Of a stretch of 64,000 bases of DNA, positions 5,902 through 63,987 are shown piece by piece. This stretch comes from Candidatus Parcubacteria bacterium (lineage in GTDB: Bacteria; Patescibacteriota; Saccharimonadia; UBA4664; JBIOIQ01): the NCBI GenBank assembly GCA_963718875.1, contig OY970378.1, forward strand, positions 1,011,691-1,075,690. Direction: 5' to 3'. A program made the position numbers and the translations under genes. Position 1 is the first letter of the stretch. Each line of letters begins with the position of its first letter. The notes under the pieces are model-generated. The model was not told the origin of the DNA. It saw only the letters and a program-made list of their open reading frames with translations, and ran no database searches.

Positions 5902-6141
5902 ATGATCTATACAGCATATATTCTTTTGACAAGCACGGGGAGCTTTTATATCGGTCAGACCAATGATATGACCGATCGCTTAGTGAGGCACGCTCGAGGG
6001 GAATGCAGTTTCACAAAATCTAGGCTGCCTGTTACTCTTGTGTATAAGGAAGAATTTACTTCTAGATCTCAGGCTGTAACGCGAGAAAGACAACTCAAAT
6101 CTTGGAAAAGCACGCAAAGGCTTAAGGCTCTTATAAATTAG
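5902..6141 (+). CDS. GIY-YIG nuclease family protein (UPF0213 / YhbQ-like, 79 aa)
   Basis: YILLTSTGSFYIGQTNDMTDRLVRH...RERQLKSWKS has the GIY-YIG core; sits between the tRNA fragment and the intact tRNA-Glu. Confidence 0.7.
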   Translation: MIYTAYILLTSTGSFYIGQTNDMTDRLVRHARGECSFTKSRLPVTLVYKEEFTSRSQAVTRERQLKSWKSTQRLKALIN

Positions 6142-6148
6142 ATGGCAT

Positions 6149-6223
6149 GACCCCATCGTCTAGCGGTTAGGACACCAGGTTTTCATCCTGGCAACCGGGG
6201 TTCGATTCCCCGTGGGGTCACCA
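6149..6223 (+). tRNA. tRNA-Glu (anticodon TTC)
   Basis: 75-nt cloverleaf folded by hand; acceptor GACCCCA/TGGGGTC; anticodon loop TTTTCAT; T arm CGGGGTTCGATTCCCCG; encoded CCA. Confidence 0.9.
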
Positions 6224-6225
6224 AT

Positions 6226-6259
6226 AAAAATACCCGAGCTTGTCTCGGGTATTTTTATT
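6226..6259 (+). terminator. Rho-independent terminator after tRNA-Glu (bidirectional-looking)
   Basis: aaaaatacccgag-cttgt-ctcgggtattttt: perfect stem flanked by an A run and a T run. Confidence 0.6.
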
Positions 6260-6422
6260 GGTGAGTGCCGCAGGCACAGCGGACCTCGGTTGAGAGTGAG
6301 CGAAAGCTAACGAGGGGTTTGATAACGAGGAAAGCGCACACAAGTTTACTTGGGGCACATGCCAATGTTATACAAAAATTCCCCGTCGGGTCACTATTCG
6401 TTATCCCTTTTCTAAGCCATGC

Positions 6423-24583: not shown

Positions 24584-25654
24584 CTAGAAAATTTCTACCG
24601 GAAGGCCTGTAAAACTAGCGTAGCGATTAGCTGCTTCAGCTATAGCTTTCGATGGGTGTTCGGCCGATACATCAAATGGTTTGAGTTTAATCTTGATTTT
24701 GCTTTTAGTAGCAGTCTTTTTCCAAGTTCCCACAACTTGGCCGTCTACTAAAATGGTGGCTAAAAACATGCCGTTGCCGCCAGGGACAACTTTTTGGCTA
24801 TAAGCTGGCGCTAGAACTGCCGAACGATCTTTATACCCCAGCAGATATTCATCAAAGCCAGGTAATAAATAAATCGGTTCTGATGAAACGGGTCGGGGCT
24901 GACGGCGTGATAAGAAATATTGACTGTCGTCGATGGTTTCGGGCGTGATGCTTGAGCCGGCTAACGCGATGCCGGCACGGGCATCAACGGCCGTCAATCC
25001 CGACCACCACATAAAATCTTGAACTGTGGCGGGACCATGACTGCTAAAATACGTAGTCGTTAATTTAGCTAACGCCTCCTCCCGACTTATCTGAGGCTGT
25101 GGCGGCAACCAATCCTCCAACCATACGAAGGTAGGCTGTTTGCCCTCATTGGGACCAAAGCAGATTAAGCCATCCTGAGACAATTGCCATAAGATGTGGT
25201 AACCGCGCTGGTTAGCTGTAGCTATGCCAGCTTGCTCTAAAGAGGTTAAAAGCTGGGCCCGAGTGACTACTCTTCCAACTTGAAGCGCGGCCGCAAGGAC
25301 CTCTTTGGCCTTACCGAAAACTTTATCATTAAGACTCAAGTTTTTCCGACGACTGGCCGCTCCGGCAATCACACGCGGAGTCAGCAACTTAAGCATCCAG
25401 CGCACATCCTGAGGTGCCACAAAGTGCAATGTGCCGCGCATAGGCCAGGTACGAATGAGCTCCCTATCGGCCACAGCCTGCTCAATGTCGGCATCGGTGA
25501 CGCCAATTGGCAGGCGTAATCCGATTGACCATTTAGCGCCGGGGTAATCTTGCGCCTGTATCGCACCCATCCAAGCCACTATCTCAGCTGGGGTAGTAAA
25601 TTGGGAATGGCTGATTTGCTGATTCGACAATCTCATCTCGGAGATTTTGTTCAT
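24584..25654 (-). CDS. winged-helix DNA glycosylase of the YcaQ/AlkZ (HTH_42, DUF1006) family
   Basis: 356 aa; N-terminal RLSNQQISHSQF...AIQAQDYPGAKWSIGLR contains the Q-hydrophobic-Q catalytic-type motif of AlkZ-like crosslink-repair glycosylases. Confidence 0.6.
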   Translation of the reverse strand: MNKISEMRLSNQQISHSQFTTPAEIVAWMGAIQAQDYPGAKWSIGLRLPIGVTDADIEQAVADRELIRTWPMRGTLHFVAPQDVRWMLKLLTPRVIAGAASRRKNLSLNDKVFGKAKEVLAAALQVGRVVTRAQLLTSLEQAGIATANQRGYHILWQLSQDGLICFGPNEGKQPTFVWLEDWLPPQPQISREEALAKLTTTYFSSHGPATVQDFMWWSGLTAVDARAGIALAGSSITPETIDDSQYFLSRRQPRPVSSEPIYLLPGFDEYLLGYKDRSAVLAPAYSQKVVPGGNGMFLATILVDGQVVGTWKKTATKSKIKIKLKPFDVSAEHPSKAIAEAANRYASFTGLPVEIF

Positions 25655-28603: not shown

Positions 28604-29149
28604 CTATTCTGCGGAGTAATCCCAGCCAGGTTGCCAAGCTTGAGCTTTACGCCAATCAGTAGCAAACGCTTCTTCCCAAGTCATGCCCTTTAATAGAACA
28701 TCTAGTGAAAGCTGAGGAGCTTTATGGGCAACTATGGCAATATGCTTTCCGTGATACTCTTTCTTTACGAATTCTAAGAAGTCAGCGATCCTAGCTTTGA
28801 CATCTTCGTAGCTTTCACCGTTTGGCATTGGTGTATCGATTGATTTTTCCTGCATTGTCTCGACTAGTTCTGAGTCTTCGCCATTCAAGTCACCGTAATT
28901 ACATTCACGCAAACGCTTATCGGCAAATCTGGGATATTTATCTCCCCAAGTCAACCTAGCCGATTCAACCGACCTAACTAAATCCGAAGTGAACACCGCA
29001 TCAAAGGTCATATTTTCTGTTAGACCAGTAAGATCCTTAGACTGCTGGATTCCCAACTCTGATAACTCAACATCATTCCAGCCAGAGGATTTGTGGATTT
29101 CATTATCTATAGTAGTACCGTGTACAAAATAAGTAATTTCTACAGACAT
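28604..29149 (-). CDS. histidine phosphatase family protein (phosphoglycerate mutase-like)
   Basis: start set at MSVEITYFVHGTT (the RHG-type motif appears here as VHG); the 125 codons upstream of it in the ORF track overlap tRNA-Lys and a structured noncoding region. Confidence 0.6.
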   Translation of the reverse strand: MSVEITYFVHGTTIDNEIHKSSGWNDVELSELGIQQSKDLTGLTENMTFDAVFTSDLVRSVESARLTWGDKYPRFADKRLRECNYGDLNGEDSELVETMQEKSIDTPMPNGESYEDVKARIADFLEFVKKEYHGKHIAIVAHKAPQLSLDVLLKGMTWEEAFATDWRKAQAWQPGWDYSAE

Positions 29150-29189
29150 AACGCAATTATACCACCAGGGGTACGAACTCCTGCAACAG

Positions 29190-29220
29190 ATAAAAAAATG
29201 CCTCTCGAATTTGAGAGTCT
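29190..29220 (-). terminator. minus-strand hairpin plus U7 (CTCTC-n6-GAGAG then GCAUUUUUUUA) in the leader of the phosphatase gene, downstream of tRNA-Lys
   Basis: short stem followed by 7 U on the minus strand; could terminate the tRNA-Lys transcript or act as an attenuator. Confidence 0.35.
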
Positions 29221-29255
29221 TCGGTGCGAACCGAATCGTATCTGGTAGATACGAT

Positions 29256-29308
29256 TGGAGGGCCGTCCGTGACTCCCCGGCTAGTGGGCCTGGGTAAACT
29301 TCTCGTCT
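29256..29308. repeat. 14-nt duplication of the tRNA-Lys 3' end (TGGAGGGCCGTCCG) fused to conserved motif copy 1 (TGACTCCCCGGCTAGTGGGCCTGGGTAAACTTCTCGTC)
   Basis: direct repeat of the tRNA 3' end about 90 bp from the tRNA; motif also at 37451-37487 and, diverged, at 63892-63927. Confidence 0.55.
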
Positions 29309-29358
29309 CGATGGACCCTTTCCAGTGAAAAAGCCCCACTTTCGTGAGGCGTTTTCAC

Positions 29359-29434
29359 TGGAGGGCCGTCCGGGACTTGAACCCGGAACCAATTGCTTAA
29401 GAGGCAACTGCTCTGCCGATTGAGCTAACGGCCC
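29359..29434 (-). tRNA. tRNA-Lys (anticodon CTT)
   Basis: 76-nt cloverleaf folded by hand: GGGCCGTTAGCTCAATCGGCAGAGCAGTTGCCTCTTAAGCAATTGGTTCCGGGTTCAAGTCCCGGACGGCCCTCCA. Confidence 0.9.
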
Positions 29435-31404: not shown

Positions 31405-31689
31405 TTAGAAATCCTCTGCTAAATCTTTCCAGTTCGGGTTACTCTCTTCAATTAATCGCAGCTTCCAAGCTCTCTTCCAATGCTTAATTTGTTTTTCGCG
31501 AAGCAATGCGGAGTTCACGTCATTGGTTTGTTCAAAATAAACCAGCATATGAACACTATTTTCCTTGGTGAACCCATCTATGAGATTGTTTTTATGCTGG
31601 TGCGCCCTAGTTTGCAGATTATTCGTCATGCCAACATAGAGAGTCCCATTGCGCTGACTAGCCATTATATAGACGTAATAAGTTTTCAT
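31405..31689 (-). CDS. GIY-YIG nuclease family protein (UPF0213/YhbQ-like, 94 aa)
   Basis: YVYIMASQRNGTLYVGMTNNLQTRAHQH...REKQIKHWKR GIY-YIG core; flanked on both sides by the repeat modules. Confidence 0.7.
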   Translation of the reverse strand: MKTYYVYIMASQRNGTLYVGMTNNLQTRAHQHKNNLIDGFTKENSVHMLVYFEQTNDVNSALLREKQIKHWKRAWKLRLIEESNPNWKDLAEDF

Positions 31690-31699
31690 TTGTTTATAT

Positions 31700-31745
31700 T
31701 ATACTTTTTTCTTTTCTGGGTCCCCGCCTTCGCAGGGACGACAAC
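31700..31745. repeat. repeat module 2 (TTTTTCTTTTCTGGGTCCCC-GCCTTCGCA-GGGAC) abutting the 5' end of the GIY-YIG gene
   Basis: reverse complement GTCCCTGCGAAGGCGGGGAC matches module 1 ATCCCTGCGTAGGCGGGGATC (roughly 18/20). Confidence 0.6.
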
Positions 31746-32749: not shown

Positions 32750-32936
32750 TGACATCCCCTATCGGCCGTTCGAGGCTCTGAGGAGCCCTCAGGCTCTCGA
32801 AGAGAAGCCAGTTATGGCTGAGTGCTTACGTAATCTGCGCTCCGGATAGGGGATCGAGGCAAAATTATCCAACTGTTTGTTTTGCTTATTTTTTTGTTTT
32901 TTTTATTTCTGGTTCCCCGCCTTCGCGGGGATAACA
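32750..32936. repeat. modular palindromic repeat, gene-less copy with long internal loop (TGACATCCCCTATCGG ... CCGGATAGGGGATCGAGG ... TTTTTTTATTTCTGGTTCCCCGCCTTCGCGGGGA)
   Basis: module 1 and module 2 both present; perfect mini-palindrome CCCCGCCTTCGCGGGG. Confidence 0.55.
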
Positions 32937-33025
32937 AGAATGAACCGTGCAAAAGTTATGTTTGATGTTTGAAAGCTGGCGCTTGAATATTGTCTGTATC
33001 CTTGCTTCTTGGGTCTTGTACCTTG

Positions 33026-37342: not shown

Positions 37343-37756
37343 TAGCGTCGTAGGGCACTACTTGGTGCACATGTTGGGGTGGACGCAACCCGTTTTATAA
37401 GCGCAGCCGTTCCGGTAATTTGAAATTGAAGTGGCTGGTGCGCCTGGAGGGACTCCCCGGCTCGGTGGCCGGGGTAAACTTCTCGTCCCTATGATTGTTA
37501 TCTGGTGCCCCTAATCGGACAGCTTTCAAACCCAGGTTTCCATGACGCGATCAGTATTCTGTATCATTCCACGCTGGAAGCCTAAGGCCCGGTACGACAT
37601 CGATTACACCTGCTTACACAAGCTACAAAAAGAAACCTCTTTGTCGTTATACAGCGGGCGGGCTCTGACGAACATTGGCCGAACGTCCAGAAATTGCTTG
37701 TTTGTTGCCGTTGCGTCCTGGAACTTCCGCCAGGCGGCGTGATCGAGCCTGGAAAA

Positions 37757-39690: not shown

Positions 39691-39918
39691 AGTATTGTTT
39701 GCAAGAAAAAAATGAATCGACATTGAACCACACTGCGAGAAGTTGAATCACTAGGCAACATTACAGACTTCAAGCGGACCTATCGAAAGGGGATAGAGCA
39801 ACTTCTTACTTAATTGCCTGACATTTTGCTGCTCACGACAAGTGCCCCTAAATACAAAAAAGAGACTTTGCTAAGTCTCTTTTCTATACTTTTGTGTAAT
39901 TACACAGGTGTTTTTCGA

Positions 39919-39994
39919 TGGTGCGCCTGAAGGGACTCGAACCCCCGACACCCAGATCCGGAATCTGGTGCTCTATCCACTGAGCTACAGGCGC
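39919..39994 (-). tRNA. tRNA-Arg (anticodon CCG)
   Basis: 76-nt cloverleaf: GCGCCTGTAGCTCAGTGGATAGAGCACCAGATTCCGGATCTGGGTGTCGGGGGTTCGAGTCCCTTCAGGCGCACCA. Confidence 0.9.
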
Positions 39995-40050: not shown

Positions 40051-41349
40051 ATGCCTAAATCAATCAAAATTACCGGTGGAAGACCCTTGCGGGGCGAGGT
40101 TACTATTAGTGGAGCCAAAAACGCCGCTACCAAGATGATGATAGCGAGCCTGCTGACGGACGAGCCGGTAGTTTTGCACAATTGCCCGCAGATTGGGGAC
40201 GTTGAAATAACGGCCGAAATTTGCCGGGCGGTGGGTGCAAAAGTGACGTTTGACGGTTCAACGGTTAGCCTCCATACGCCAAAAATATTGCGGCCAGCAG
40301 TTAAGCGGTTAAGCCAAAATAATCGCATTTCGGTTTTAGCTATTTCGCCTTTACTGCACCGCGCCGGTAGCGCTGCTGTACCAAAAGTATCGGGTGACTT
40401 TATTGGACCGAGGCCGGTTAACTTTCATCTTGATGCTTTGCGAAAAATGGGAGCAAACATCGAAGAAACTAGTAAAGGCTACAAGGCAAAAGCTACAGGA
40501 CTCCATGGAACGTCCATCACCTTGCCGTATCCAAGTGTTGGTGCGACGGAAAACGTTATTTTTGCGGCTGTTCTTGCCCAAGGTAGGACGATTATCAAAA
40601 ATGCGGCTACTGAGCCGGAAATAACCGACATCATTAAGATGCTCCAACGCATGGGAGCGATCATTGAGTTTCGGGCCAACCGAACCATCATTATTGACGG
40701 CGTAGAAAGACTGGGCGGCGTAGAGTACAGCATAATCCCCGACCGCATTGAGGCCGCTTCATATGCCATTATGGCCGTAGCAACGGACGGGGACATTTTG
40801 GTTAAAGGTGCAAGGCAAGAAGACCTCATGACCCTCCTCAATACCATAAGACGAATTGGGGCAGACTATACAATTGAGGAAGGCGGAATTCGCTTTAAAA
40901 GGATAGGCCGGACATTAATTGGTATTGAGCTTGAAACCGATACCCATCCCGGATTTATGACTGACTGGCAACAGCCTATGGTGGTACTCTTAACCCAGGC
41001 TGAAGGGATTTCGGTAGTACATGAAACGGTTTATGAAGATCGTTTTGGGTATGTTGAAACACTAAAGGCGATGGGATCAAGCATTACGGTTTTTAGTAAA
41101 TGTTTGGGTGAACTACCTTGCCGATTTAACGGTGAGGGTTATAAACACAGTGCCGTCATTAAGGGTCCTACGCCTTTACGTTCAGCCAAAGTGGTGATTC
41201 CAGATATTCGGGCCGGGATGGCTCAAGTCATCGCAGCATTAATAGCCGAGGGCACTTCGGAGTTGACGGGGTTAGAGCACTTGTTGCGCGGATACGAGAA
41301 CTTGCTTGATAAATTGAAGTCCGTGGGCGCGGATTTTAGCGCCAAATAG
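40051..41349 (+). CDS. murA: UDP-N-acetylglucosamine 1-carboxyvinyltransferase
   Basis: 432 aa; EPT-fold MurA colinearity (KISGAKNAA-type N-terminus, catalytic Cys region). Confidence 0.85.
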   Translation: MPKSIKITGGRPLRGEVTISGAKNAATKMMIASLLTDEPVVLHNCPQIGDVEITAEICRAVGAKVTFDGSTVSLHTPKILRPAVKRLSQNNRISVLAISPLLHRAGSAAVPKVSGDFIGPRPVNFHLDALRKMGANIEETSKGYKAKATGLHGTSITLPYPSVGATENVIFAAVLAQGRTIIKNAATEPEITDIIKMLQRMGAIIEFRANRTIIIDGVERLGGVEYSIIPDRIEAASYAIMAVATDGDILVKGARQEDLMTLLNTIRRIGADYTIEEGGIRFKRIGRTLIGIELETDTHPGFMTDWQQPMVVLLTQAEGISVVHETVYEDRFGYVETLKAMGSSITVFSKCLGELPCRFNGEGYKHSAVIKGPTPLRSAKVVIPDIRAGMAQVIAALIAEGTSELTGLEHLLRGYENLLDKLKSVGADFSAK

Positions 41350-41917: not shown

Positions 41918-43711
41918 TTACTTATATCCTTCCGCCTGCAGTTCAAATAATTCGCGATAATGGCCACCCTTAATTTTCACCAAATCATTGTGAGTACCAT
42001 GTTCAATTAGCCGGCCTTTGTCCATGACGTAGATGTGGTCGGCGTTACGAACCGTACTAAAACGGTGGGAAATAATGATGGTGGTTTTATCTTTTTGGGT
42101 TTTATTAATCTGCTGAAATATTTCGTATTCTCCCCGAGCATCAATAGCGCTAGTTGGTTCGTCTAGAATCAAAATCCCGGCGTTACGAAAAAAAGTCCGG
42201 GCAAGCGCAATGCGCTGCCATTGTCCGCCCGACGGCTCTATCCCCTCCGCAAACGAACGATCTAATATTTGGTGGTATTTTTTGTTGTAACGCTCGATAA
42301 AATCATTAGCGCCAGCCGCTTTTGATGCCTTGATCATCCGGGTGTCGTTATGATAATCCAGCACATCGCCCAGCTTAATGTTGTCGCCTGCCGACAAATA
42401 ACCGTAGTGGTTGAAATCTTGGAACAGTACCCCTATATGGCGGTACCAGTCAGACAGTTTAAGCTCTTTAATATTGTGGCCGTTGATTAATATCTCGCCT
42501 TCATCAACGTCATAAAACCGCATCAAGAGCTTGATGAGAGTGGTTTTACCGGCGCCGTTTTCGCCTACTATTGCGACTGCCTCACCGGGCTGGATGACCA
42601 TGGAGAAGTCTTTAAAAATGTAGTTTTTGGTGTGGGGATATTTAAAGGAAATATTTTTTACCTCAATGAGCGGAACTTCTTTGGCTGGCAATGAAACTGG
42701 CTGGGCTGGCTCAACTACTCTTGGTTCAAGCGCCAGTAAATCAAATGTATCTTCAATGTAACGCTGGTTGTCTTGCATGCGCTGGTATGCGGTAGATAGG
42801 CTAGTGAGACTCCCTGAAAAATTATTCACAACTTGGCGGTAAAACTGAAAATCCCCTAAGCCAAATTTGCTGCCTCGCCCTAAAACTTTCAAGAGCAGCC
42901 ATATGTCCACACCCAGCTCAACGGCGCCACTCAATATAGCTGCACCGCTACGGCGCTTCAATGCCCGCTTTTCGATTTTGACGTCTAAGTCTTTAAATCT
43001 TTGAAAAAAAGTTTTCCATAAACCCACCATGTGGTTATAAATACCGGTCATTTTAATTTCTTTGACCATTTCCGGGTTAAGCAGGGTGGTGCGTGAGTTC
43101 CACATATGACGCCAGTCATCACCAATAATGTCCCAGCGGCGCCAACGTTCTAAACTGGTTTGAGTCTCAATTATTACGACGGGCGCAACTGAAATTAATA
43201 AAACAAACAACAAAATGGGGTTTAATAGCACTAAGGCGGCTGCAGCTACCAATAAGGTTACGAGGGAGGAAATAAGTTGGAATAGATTGGTCGAAAATTG
43301 TGTTAAGGCATAGCGGTTTTCGTCCACTTTGGCTAGTTGGGTATTAAAGCTGGGGTCTTCATAGTAGCTTTGATCTAGACGTTGAAACTGGCTAAACAGT
43401 CGCTGCTGCAAGTGCATATCAAAACGATAATCCGTGACGGAACTCCAGTATCTATCGAGGCTTGCCAGTAGCTGGCCAAGAAAGCTAAGCCCAGCCACTA
43501 AGGCTGTCAGGGCAAATATGGGCGTTGTTGAGCCGTTATGATCTACCAGGTAATTGACCACAAGATTAATAATGCGGCCAGCCAGGTAAGCGTTGGCTAG
43601 AGGCAAAATGCCCTGTAGTATTTGAAGGACGAAGCGGCCAAAATAAAGTAAAGGGGATGTTTCCCAAGCAAAAAGCACAGCCCGCTTGGTTGTTTGCCAA
43701 AACTTTTTCAT
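41918..43711 (-). CDS. ABC exporter, fused permease/ATP-binding protein (MsbA-like type I)
   Basis: N-terminal six-helix TMD; C-terminal NBD with GENGAGKTT, LSGGQWQRIALAR, ILILDEPTSAID. Confidence 0.75.
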   Translation of the reverse strand: MKKFWQTTKRAVLFAWETSPLLYFGRFVLQILQGILPLANAYLAGRIINLVVNYLVDHNGSTTPIFALTALVAGLSFLGQLLASLDRYWSSVTDYRFDMHLQQRLFSQFQRLDQSYYEDPSFNTQLAKVDENRYALTQFSTNLFQLISSLVTLLVAAAALVLLNPILLFVLLISVAPVVIIETQTSLERWRRWDIIGDDWRHMWNSRTTLLNPEMVKEIKMTGIYNHMVGLWKTFFQRFKDLDVKIEKRALKRRSGAAILSGAVELGVDIWLLLKVLGRGSKFGLGDFQFYRQVVNNFSGSLTSLSTAYQRMQDNQRYIEDTFDLLALEPRVVEPAQPVSLPAKEVPLIEVKNISFKYPHTKNYIFKDFSMVIQPGEAVAIVGENGAGKTTLIKLLMRFYDVDEGEILINGHNIKELKLSDWYRHIGVLFQDFNHYGYLSAGDNIKLGDVLDYHNDTRMIKASKAAGANDFIERYNKKYHQILDRSFAEGIEPSGGQWQRIALARTFFRNAGILILDEPTSAIDARGEYEIFQQINKTQKDKTTIIISHRFSTVRNADHIYVMDKGRLIEHGTHNDLVKIKGGHYRELFELQAEGYK

Positions 43712-63775: not shown

Positions 63776-63891
63776 TGACTAATACTATCAAAAAGTTCGA
63801 TTACCCATCAGGGGTAACAAAAATAATCACTTAGCGAAGGGATTATTTTATGGGGCGAGTGATCCTTCGACTACGCTCAGGATTTAGAATG

Positions 63892-63927
63892 GGCTCCCCG
63901 GATCGTCGCCTGAGAGTAAACTTCTCG
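63892..63927. repeat. diverged copy 3 of the tRNA-associated end motif (GGCTCCCCGGATCGTCGCCTGAGAGTAAACTTCTCGC)
   Basis: shares CTCCCCGG and GTAAACTTCTCG with copies at 29270-29307 and 37451-37487. Confidence 0.4.
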
Positions 63928-63929
63928 CA

Positions 63930-63987
63930 CCATCCTCTTCAAAACAAAAACCCCAGCTTTCGCTGAGGATTTTGTTTTGGGGCCGTA
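63930..63987. repeat. 58-bp direct repeat copy 2
   Basis: see 63119-63176. Confidence 0.6.

Follow-up and report, generated by a model that had tools for sequence, protein, structure and literature searches.

Elements of the CIME type, in which att-type repeats flank DNA without recombination genes, accumulate in tandem at a single tRNA gene; the known examples measure kilobases and can be traced to identifiable ICEs. Tandem units are also known from the region downstream of the tyrT gene of E. coli, where each repeat contains the last 19 nt of tRNA-Tyr. Partial tRNAs made by integrases are reported to flank genomic islands, repeated integrations pushing the older elements outward (10.1101/2020.12.28.424599).

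The segment studied here lies on the minus strand between a tRNA-Lys gene and a histidine-phosphatase gene of a genome from which a stretch of 64,000 nt (the window) was analysed. An earlier note had offered two readings of this segment: an att scar, left beside tRNA-Lys by an element that has since been lost, and an attenuator or riboswitch-like leader of the phosphatase gene. The segment probably consists of three juxtaposed pieces rather than one regulatory RNA, namely the insertion of a tRNA-targeting element, the ancestral trailer and terminator of tRNA-Lys, and the promoter of the phosphatase gene.

Insertion at the 3' end of tRNA-Lys

The tRNA-Lys(CTT) gene (29359-29434, minus strand) is intact and encodes its own CCA (ARAGORN; Rfam tRNA, 70.2 bits, among window tRNAs that score 68-72 bits). 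Its last 14 nt (plus-strand TGGAGGGCCGTCCG) are found exactly at 29359-29372 and again at 29256-29269, as the earlier note had observed, and the repeat can be extended to 19 nt with one mismatch, its copies being 103 bp apart from start to start. With up to two mismatches, only 0.30 matches to TGGAGGGCCGTCCG are expected per whole window, and three or more were obtained in none of 100 shuffles. The displaced tRNA-Lys 3' end (AGUCaCGGACGGCCCUCCA, 29256-29274, minus strand) overlaps the 3' strand of P1, a helix described below. The arrangement is of the att type: the 3' end of the tRNA is repeated on either side of the insert, with the intact tRNA on one side, and the same is true of a tRNA-Arg gene in the window. 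All four displaced ends that were examined (of tRNA-Lys, tRNA-Arg and tRNA-Glu in the window, and of tRNA-Lys in the related locus L005) run from the T-loop to the CCA and stop exactly at the CCA.

Homologues of the phosphatase bear Saccharibacteria names, and four loci that have close orthologues of it and the same arrangement from tRNA-Lys to phosphatase (L003-L006) were compared with the window (alignment A4). In L003 and L004 (phosphatase 92% identical) and in L006 (85% identical), the CCA of tRNA-Lys directly abuts a trailer hairpin, which is followed by a GGTTCG box, a CCTCTC...GAGAGG terminator with its T-run, TTGCAA, TGGTATAAT and the ATG of the phosphatase gene. The window has the same series from trailer to promoter, beginning only past the second copy of the tRNA-Lys end. 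Since the CCA is joined directly to the trailer in L003, L004 and L006, these loci are empty sites and the 103 bp at 29256-29358 of the window are an insertion; the covariance model of the conserved motif described below (R1) finds no copy in them. The remaining locus, L005 (89% identical), possesses a different insert of approximately 130 bp from CCA to CCA at the identical nucleotide. This insert shares the layout of the one in the window: its terminator abuts the CCA and precedes a spacer, after which come a T-stem-complementary strand with GCGAGA, a hairpin that contains GTTTAC, and a copy of the tRNA end of L005 itself.

The comparison with an unoccupied tRNA-Lys locus that the earlier note had proposed is thus available in three relatives, and the att scar holds to the extent that there is an insertion with a displaced tRNA end and with empty sites elsewhere. 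That the element has since been lost is less certain: other sites, and another phylum, show the same compact build of terminator, spacer, motif and displaced end. Instead of being what a random deletion left behind, the insert may itself be a miniature element.

The tRNA-Lys(CTT) of the window differs from the tRNA-Lys of L003, L005 and L006 at approximately 20 positions, located in acceptor pairs 6-7, the D-loop, the anticodon stem and the T-stem, and the changes in the acceptor are compensatory. The genes upstream of tRNA-Lys also differ between the window and the relatives with 85-92% identical phosphatases. Together, the divergence of the tRNA and the change of upstream genes suggest a replacement or rearrangement with its breakpoint at the tRNA. 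The displaced end has the acceptor strand of the window type (ACGGCCC, versus CTGGCCC in the relatives), and the insertion therefore occurred in, or arrived with, that tRNA variant.

Structure of the insert and its conserved motif

Read in the sense of the tRNA, the modules consist of a terminator hairpin abutting the CCA, a spacer of 7-27 nt, a 45-nt motif, and a displaced tRNA end that extends to the CCA. The left end of the Lys insert (29321-29362, minus strand) has the form of a bidirectional-type intrinsic terminator with an A-tract, a GC-rich hairpin and a U-tract (inverted repeat I3, terminator scan and MFE), in which CCAGUGAAAA.../...UUUUUCACUGG (arms 29321-29339 and 29344-29362) enclose GCCUCAC-GAAA-GUGGGGC (stem 29333-29350 in the scan). 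In the Saccharibacteria copies the outer stem of this terminator pairs with the CCA of the tRNA, and terminators of like design are found in L005 and at 63941-63978 and 6221-6261 of the window. The spacer of the Lys insert (29312-29320, minus strand; the GGAAAGGGUCCA region), which separates the terminator from the motif, resembles TTAGGGGCAC, a repeat of 10 nt that is found on both sides of the cargo in the tRNA-Arg islet.

The conserved 45-nt motif of the Lys insert (29267-29311, minus strand; alignment A2) scores 62.9 bits (E=1.8e-13) with covariance model R1, which was built from four copies of the motif; the Arg copy scores 67 bits and a third copy 22.3 bits (E=0.003). In the outer helix P1, a 5-nt strand complementary to the 3' strand of the T-stem, extended by AC, pairs with GU and the 3' strand of the displaced T-stem; the helix encloses a junction (GAGAAGUUUA) and a second hairpin, P2 (CCCNGGC-6 nt-GCCGGGG), which is followed by A. 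The T-stem-complementary strand and the displaced T-stem flank GAGAAGTTTA and the GC hairpin, and the predicted fold would make the motif in effect a T-arm with its loop replaced by a conserved block of 35 nt. Counted over five copies of the motif, pairing is found in 88% of cells, compared with 76% when shuffled and 36-48% with slid partners. Both-sided changes occur in four of the seven pairs of P1 and track the T-stems of tRNA-Lys, tRNA-Arg, tRNA-Leu and the target of the third copy (n=5 copies); the junction and P2 are nearly constant across the same five.

Other modules in the window

A second module end (37436-37491, minus strand) has the motif (37447-37491) fused to a displaced tRNA-Arg(CCG) 3' end (37436-37455, a repeat of 20 nt with one mismatch). 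The earlier note had recognized that the Lys copy is joined to the motif seen at this boundary, and the two can indeed be aligned over 58 nt at 78% identity (37436-37493). The tRNA-Arg(CCG) gene itself is located at 39919-39994, and the islet that extends from it to 37436 is 2.48 kb long and of higher GC content (0.51-0.53). Inside the spacer, the 2.3-kb cargo has on each side a direct repeat of 10 nt (GTGCCCCTAA, 37505-37514 and 39842-39851). The repeat suggests a second site of entry or exit for cargo, or else that empty modules are produced by deletions between repeats of this kind. The ORFs of the islet (143, 161 and approximately 130 aa, all acidic) have no match in Pfam or PHROG, to an integrase or otherwise. 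The displaced Arg copy has a derived base (CCCTC), while the working tRNA-Arg keeps the CCCTT of the relatives; attR being expected to preserve the original end, this difference would be neutral to slightly contrary. The orthologous loci identified through MurA (L016-L018) are too rearranged to yield an empty tRNA-Arg site.

A third, diverged module (63889-63978, minus strand) consists of a terminator hairpin (63941-63978) that closely resembles those of the Lys insert and L005, and the motif (63889-63933). The RNA or gene that this copy follows ends ...CACCGTACGGCCCCA and is situated past the end of the window (64000); the sequence after the motif does not match that end.

The tRNA-Glu(TTC) region (6149-6396, plus strand) includes a bidirectional terminator that pairs with the CCA (6221-6261), ACGAG...AAGTTTAC boxes (6340-6349), and a copy of the tRNA-Glu end 173 bp downstream (6378-6396, 19 nt with two mismatches). 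Because the tRNA end copy lies behind a terminator of the same type and these boxes, the site is probably a diverged fourth module, and if it is counted, modules mark three of the window's four tRNAs.

Two small stand-alone GIY-YIG ORFs are also present, of 79 aa (5902-6141, plus strand) and 94 aa (31405-31689, minus strand). The former ends 8 nt before tRNA-Glu, and near the latter is a 63-nt repeat (31682-31744 and 32875-32937, 73% identity) with the hairpin TCCCCGCCTTCGCGGGGA.

Distribution of the motif

The motif in its exact form is rare. Exact motif patterns gave only two chance coding matches, in Alphaproteobacteria, among genomes that represent each GTDB species once, and nothing or chance coding matches in IMG/VR; a blastn search with the module against phage and plasmid collections returned nothing meaningful. 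An exact scan of JGI metagenomes identified one real locus, L015. At this locus (L015 4300-4612 = L021 9603-9900), at least three tandem units of 95 bp, each made of a terminator, the motif and a tRNA-Leu end, follow tRNA-Leu(CAG) and become more degenerate the farther they lie from it. Four further contigs of this strain contain an identical array, which makes five contigs in all, from different samples. Between the Saccharibacteria genome and this FCB-group-like contig, 16 + 12 nt of the motif are identical.

The organism of L015 encodes an AraD1/GguC protein, an AraC regulator and a sugar porter. The named homologues of its GguC (55-58% identity) are from Balneolaceae, Flexithrix, Saprospiraceae and Chitinophagaceae, which places this organism in a different phylum from that of the window. 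Different genes are found upstream of GguC in the loci of a GguC relative (L027-L030). There is no recombinase within 10 kb of the L021 array.

Origin of the insertion

The repeat from T-loop to CCA, the empty sites, the islet with cargo, and the stacked copies that decay outward fit the site-specific integration reported for islands with partial tRNAs at their flanks (10.1101/2020.12.28.424599) and lead to the reading of the Lys insert as an integration footprint. A tRNA-targeting mobile element would have inserted 103 bp at the 3' end of tRNA-Lys; since the tRNA is intact, the insertion either rebuilt its end from the middle of the T-loop to the CCA or landed just past the CCA. It would have brought a new intrinsic terminator directly after the CCA and left a 19-nt copy of the tRNA end downstream, joined to the 45-nt motif at the far end of the element. 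What is now present may be a gene-less miniature element or a footprint, resembling an attL and an attR with almost nothing between them, or a cis-mobilisable element; it may have been reduced to its two ends or have been miniature from the start. We infer site-specific recombination, most simply by a tyrosine-type integrase that would act in trans with its crossover in or beside the T-loop. The predicted junction of the empty site is tRNA-Lys ...CCCTCCA + ATCGTATCT, and that of the circle would be ...GCCGGGG + AGTCCCGG...CCAGTGAAAA.

Some features of the modules are not those of a typical integrase element. No integrase or recombinase is found in the Lys insert, which contains no ORF, in the Arg islet (Pfam and PHROG) or in the L021 flanks, and a box-II regular expression applied to all ORFs of the window, which is a weak test, identified no integrase. 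The preponderance of gene-less modules (four or five, versus one with cargo) would be odd for random decay, and a circle of 103 bp would be a poor substrate for an integrase. Standard attP models do not predict a 35-nt block at the position of the T-loop, nor an element strand that co-varies with the T-stem of the target.

These features could instead belong to a hairpin-guided miniature transposon that inserts precisely after the 3' end of a tRNA, an explanation that we regard as unlikely. To recognize its target, the variable 5' strand of P1 would base-pair with the 3' strand of the T-stem, as do the single-stranded DNA ends of IS200/IS605 elements or RNA-guided systems, and the right end of such an element would carry its own copy of the target, so that tandem arrays like the units of L015 would arise naturally. 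In keeping with this explanation, P1 has both-sided changes in four of seven pairs while the junction and P2 are constant; uniform, compact modules occur in two phyla and in three genomic contexts; all four repeats examined stop exactly at the CCA; the CCA of the tRNA pairs with the outer stem of the left hairpin; and the places examined contain no integrase. However, the complementarity of P1, scored on five copies, is equally expected from simple copying of the T-arm; neither a Y1/HUH transposase nor another candidate enzyme was found (Pfam, PHROG), the sequence of the left hairpin bears no relation to that of the right one, in contrast to the ends of IS200/IS605, and the target copy of 19-20 nt is much longer than the cleavage sites of 4-5 nt used by IS200/IS605. 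A broader proposition, likewise doubtful, takes the 45-nt motif as the mark of a family of miniature elements not yet described, or of a platform where cargo docks. The family would target the T-arm and 3' end of tRNAs in distant phyla by means of a P1 guide beside the constant GAGAAGUUUA and P2 and of an enzyme acting in trans, and this structure- or guide-based recognition would differ from that of classic integrase att sites.

Local duplication of the tRNA 3' end and terminator by slippage or unequal crossing-over, without any mobile element, is quite improbable. The tandem 95-bp units of L015 do look like the product of such a duplication, and no recombinase was found; but the interior of the insert is not copied from neighbouring sequence, close relatives have clean empty sites, and the same 35-nt block is found in two phyla, with three different tRNAs, and in an islet whose foreign cargo measures 2.3 kb. 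Local duplication is unlikely to produce one block that serves different tRNAs and phyla, and the sharing of the motif by unrelated tRNAs largely refutes it.

There is very little probability that the 45-nt motif and the displaced acceptor strand constitute a functional tRNA-like sRNA, or a decoy that mimics the T-arm, under selection in its own right. Its two-helix fold shows covariation and is conserved across phyla, but the covariation is explained by the T-stem of the target; the putative RNA would lie downstream of a strong terminator with no promoter of its own, it has no 5' acceptor strand and no Rfam family, and its copies decay with distance from the tRNA.

In antisense the motif presumably resembles type I-E CRISPR repeats. 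A CRISPR origin was rejected, the copies in the window being solitary and the units of L015 having identical "spacers", and so was a DDE transposon, there being no terminal inverted repeats.

The region between the insertion and the phosphatase gene

Next to the inserted segment are the two pieces of the segment that the window shares with its relatives. The ancestral trailer hairpin of tRNA-Lys (AAUCGUAUCU-ACC-AGAUACGAUU, 29234-29256, minus strand) is present in all orthologous loci (A4 and consensus fold), and the ancestral intrinsic terminator of the tRNA-Lys transcript (29192-29217, minus strand; terminator scan) is conserved in L003-L006. The terminator has a stem, CUCUC-AAAUUC-GAGAG (29202-29217), followed by GCA and a run of seven U (29192-29198) whose end is 42 nt from the ATG at 29149; the earlier note gave about 45 nt. 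The hairpins listed there are all present, except that on the minus strand the loop of the trailer hairpin is ACC and not GGU. The terminator scan detects intrinsic terminators at both 29333-29350 and 29202-29217, and both are predicted to be active.

The phosphatase gene (28604-29149, minus strand; PF00300, Pfam E=2.2e-27) is preceded by a putative promoter (29156-29186, minus strand) with a -35-like TTGCAG (29181-29186), a spacer of 19 nt and an extended -10 sequence, TGGTATAAT (29156-29164), which is situated between the U7 terminator and the ATG. TGGTATAAT is invariant in all five loci and ends 6 nt upstream of the ATG; there is no Shine-Dalgarno sequence, and the mRNA would have essentially no 5' UTR. 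To judge from these sequences, TGGTATAAT would be the promoter of the phosphatase gene and its mRNA leaderless. In 10 of the 46 long ORFs of the window (examples are at 40051, 24584-25654 and 41918-43711), a -10-like hexamer ends 6-9 nt upstream of the ATG, and none of the 10 has a Shine-Dalgarno sequence; thus, leaderless starts appear to be common in this genome.

The spacer of the promoter contains a T-arm-like relic (GGAGTTCGTACCCC at 29168-29181 of the window, minus strand; AGGGTTCAAGTCCCT at 2970-2985 of L003), after which comes GGTGGTATAAT. The relic looks like an older displaced tRNA end that may now provide the -10 box.

The U7 terminator, which is conserved as part of the trailer, probably belongs to the tRNA transcript and lies upstream of the putative phosphatase promoter. 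The ancestral trailer, with its hairpin and U7 terminator, would end transcription of tRNA-Lys, and the phosphatase gene, with an extended -10 promoter of its own 6 nt from the ATG, would give a leaderless mRNA. The 213-nt minus-strand RNA has a predicted folding energy of -87.3 kcal/mol (z = -6.5 versus shuffles), and in the modelled structure this stability is that of two terminators and a trailer hairpin, not of a single integrated fold. Changes in the pairs of the trailer hairpin and terminator are one-sided (G-U) only, with both-sided changes in 0 of 35 predicted pairs. Rfam searches of the Lys region, at gathering thresholds and at E<=10, detect only the tRNA, and those of the Arg islet end and the L015 array yield only tRNAs and chance matches. 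More distant homologues of the phosphatase (79-82% identical) are found in unrelated contexts, without such an upstream region.

Upstream of one 82% identical homologue, L007 has a gene for a reverse transcriptase (RVT_1) and a non-coding stretch of 700 bp (1449-2288), with no tRNA-Lys nearby.

The leader of approximately 200 nt that the earlier note supposed to control the phosphatase gene through the U7 terminator, as an attenuator or riboswitch, would accord with the strong structure of the segment (z = -6.5) and with a terminator on the same strand approximately 42 nt upstream of the ATG, but it is scarcely credible, given that its tRNA-proximal half is an insertion absent from the closest orthologous loci, that the terminator is part of a conserved tRNA trailer upstream of the putative phosphatase promoter, that the invariant TGGTATAAT between terminator and ATG would leave essentially no 5' UTR, that the Rfam search and comparative alignment proposed in the note reveal only the tRNA, even at E<=10, and no compensatory changes, and that homologues 79-82% identical to the phosphatase have no such region upstream.

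Comparison with known systems

A false riboswitch candidate can be removed from the annotation of this genome. The pieces of the supposed leader match ordinary intrinsic terminators and leaderless extended -10 promoters, and are unusual only in the T-arm-like relic of the promoter spacer. The tRNA trailers of this Saccharibacteria genome appear to be built from layered scars of mobile elements, which may supply terminators and even a promoter.

The IS200/IS605 elements and PATEs resemble the modules in their small size, their subterminal hairpins and an internal strand complementary to the junction sequence. They differ in that no Y1_Tnp match is found here (Pfam), the hairpins of a module are dissimilar, and a 19-nt target copy is present where those elements make no duplication; the resemblance is a lead only. 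The tyrT/rtT repeats of E. coli are likewise tandem units downstream of a tRNA, each with approximately 19 nt of the tRNA end, a tandem arrangement that is seen here in L015 only. There is no sequence similarity to them and no Rfam match to rtT, and the motif, unlike the tyrT repeats, is shared by tRNAs of different kinds and by different phyla, an indication that it is of mobile origin.

The CIMEs share with the modules their att-type repeats, the absence of recombination genes and the tandem copies at one tRNA, but the units here are only 95-130 bp long and have no known parent element. A gene-less module of approximately 100 bp with a conserved hairpin motif embedded in a T-arm, for which no recombinase was found, is of note for the biology of mobile elements. 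If the modules prove mobile, they would be to our knowledge the smallest tRNA-targeting elements, and they may offer a handle on an as yet unidentified recombination system in CPR bacteria.

In overall layout the locus resembles islands integrated at tRNAs, such as the tycheposons of Prochlorococcus and the ssrA islands of Dehalococcoides, which have in common with this locus the flanking repeat of the tRNA 3' end, the intact tRNA, the empty sites, the stacked partial tRNAs with older ones farther out, and, in the Arg islet, foreign-looking cargo. Unlike those islands, no copy seen here is accompanied by an integrase, most copies are only approximately 100 bp long, and in the displaced copy the place of the T-loop is taken by a conserved block of 35 nt, which includes a GC hairpin and is shared across tRNAs and phyla. 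Overall, the locus is an ordinary tRNA integration hotspot, whose end motif and miniature form are unusual and apparently undescribed.
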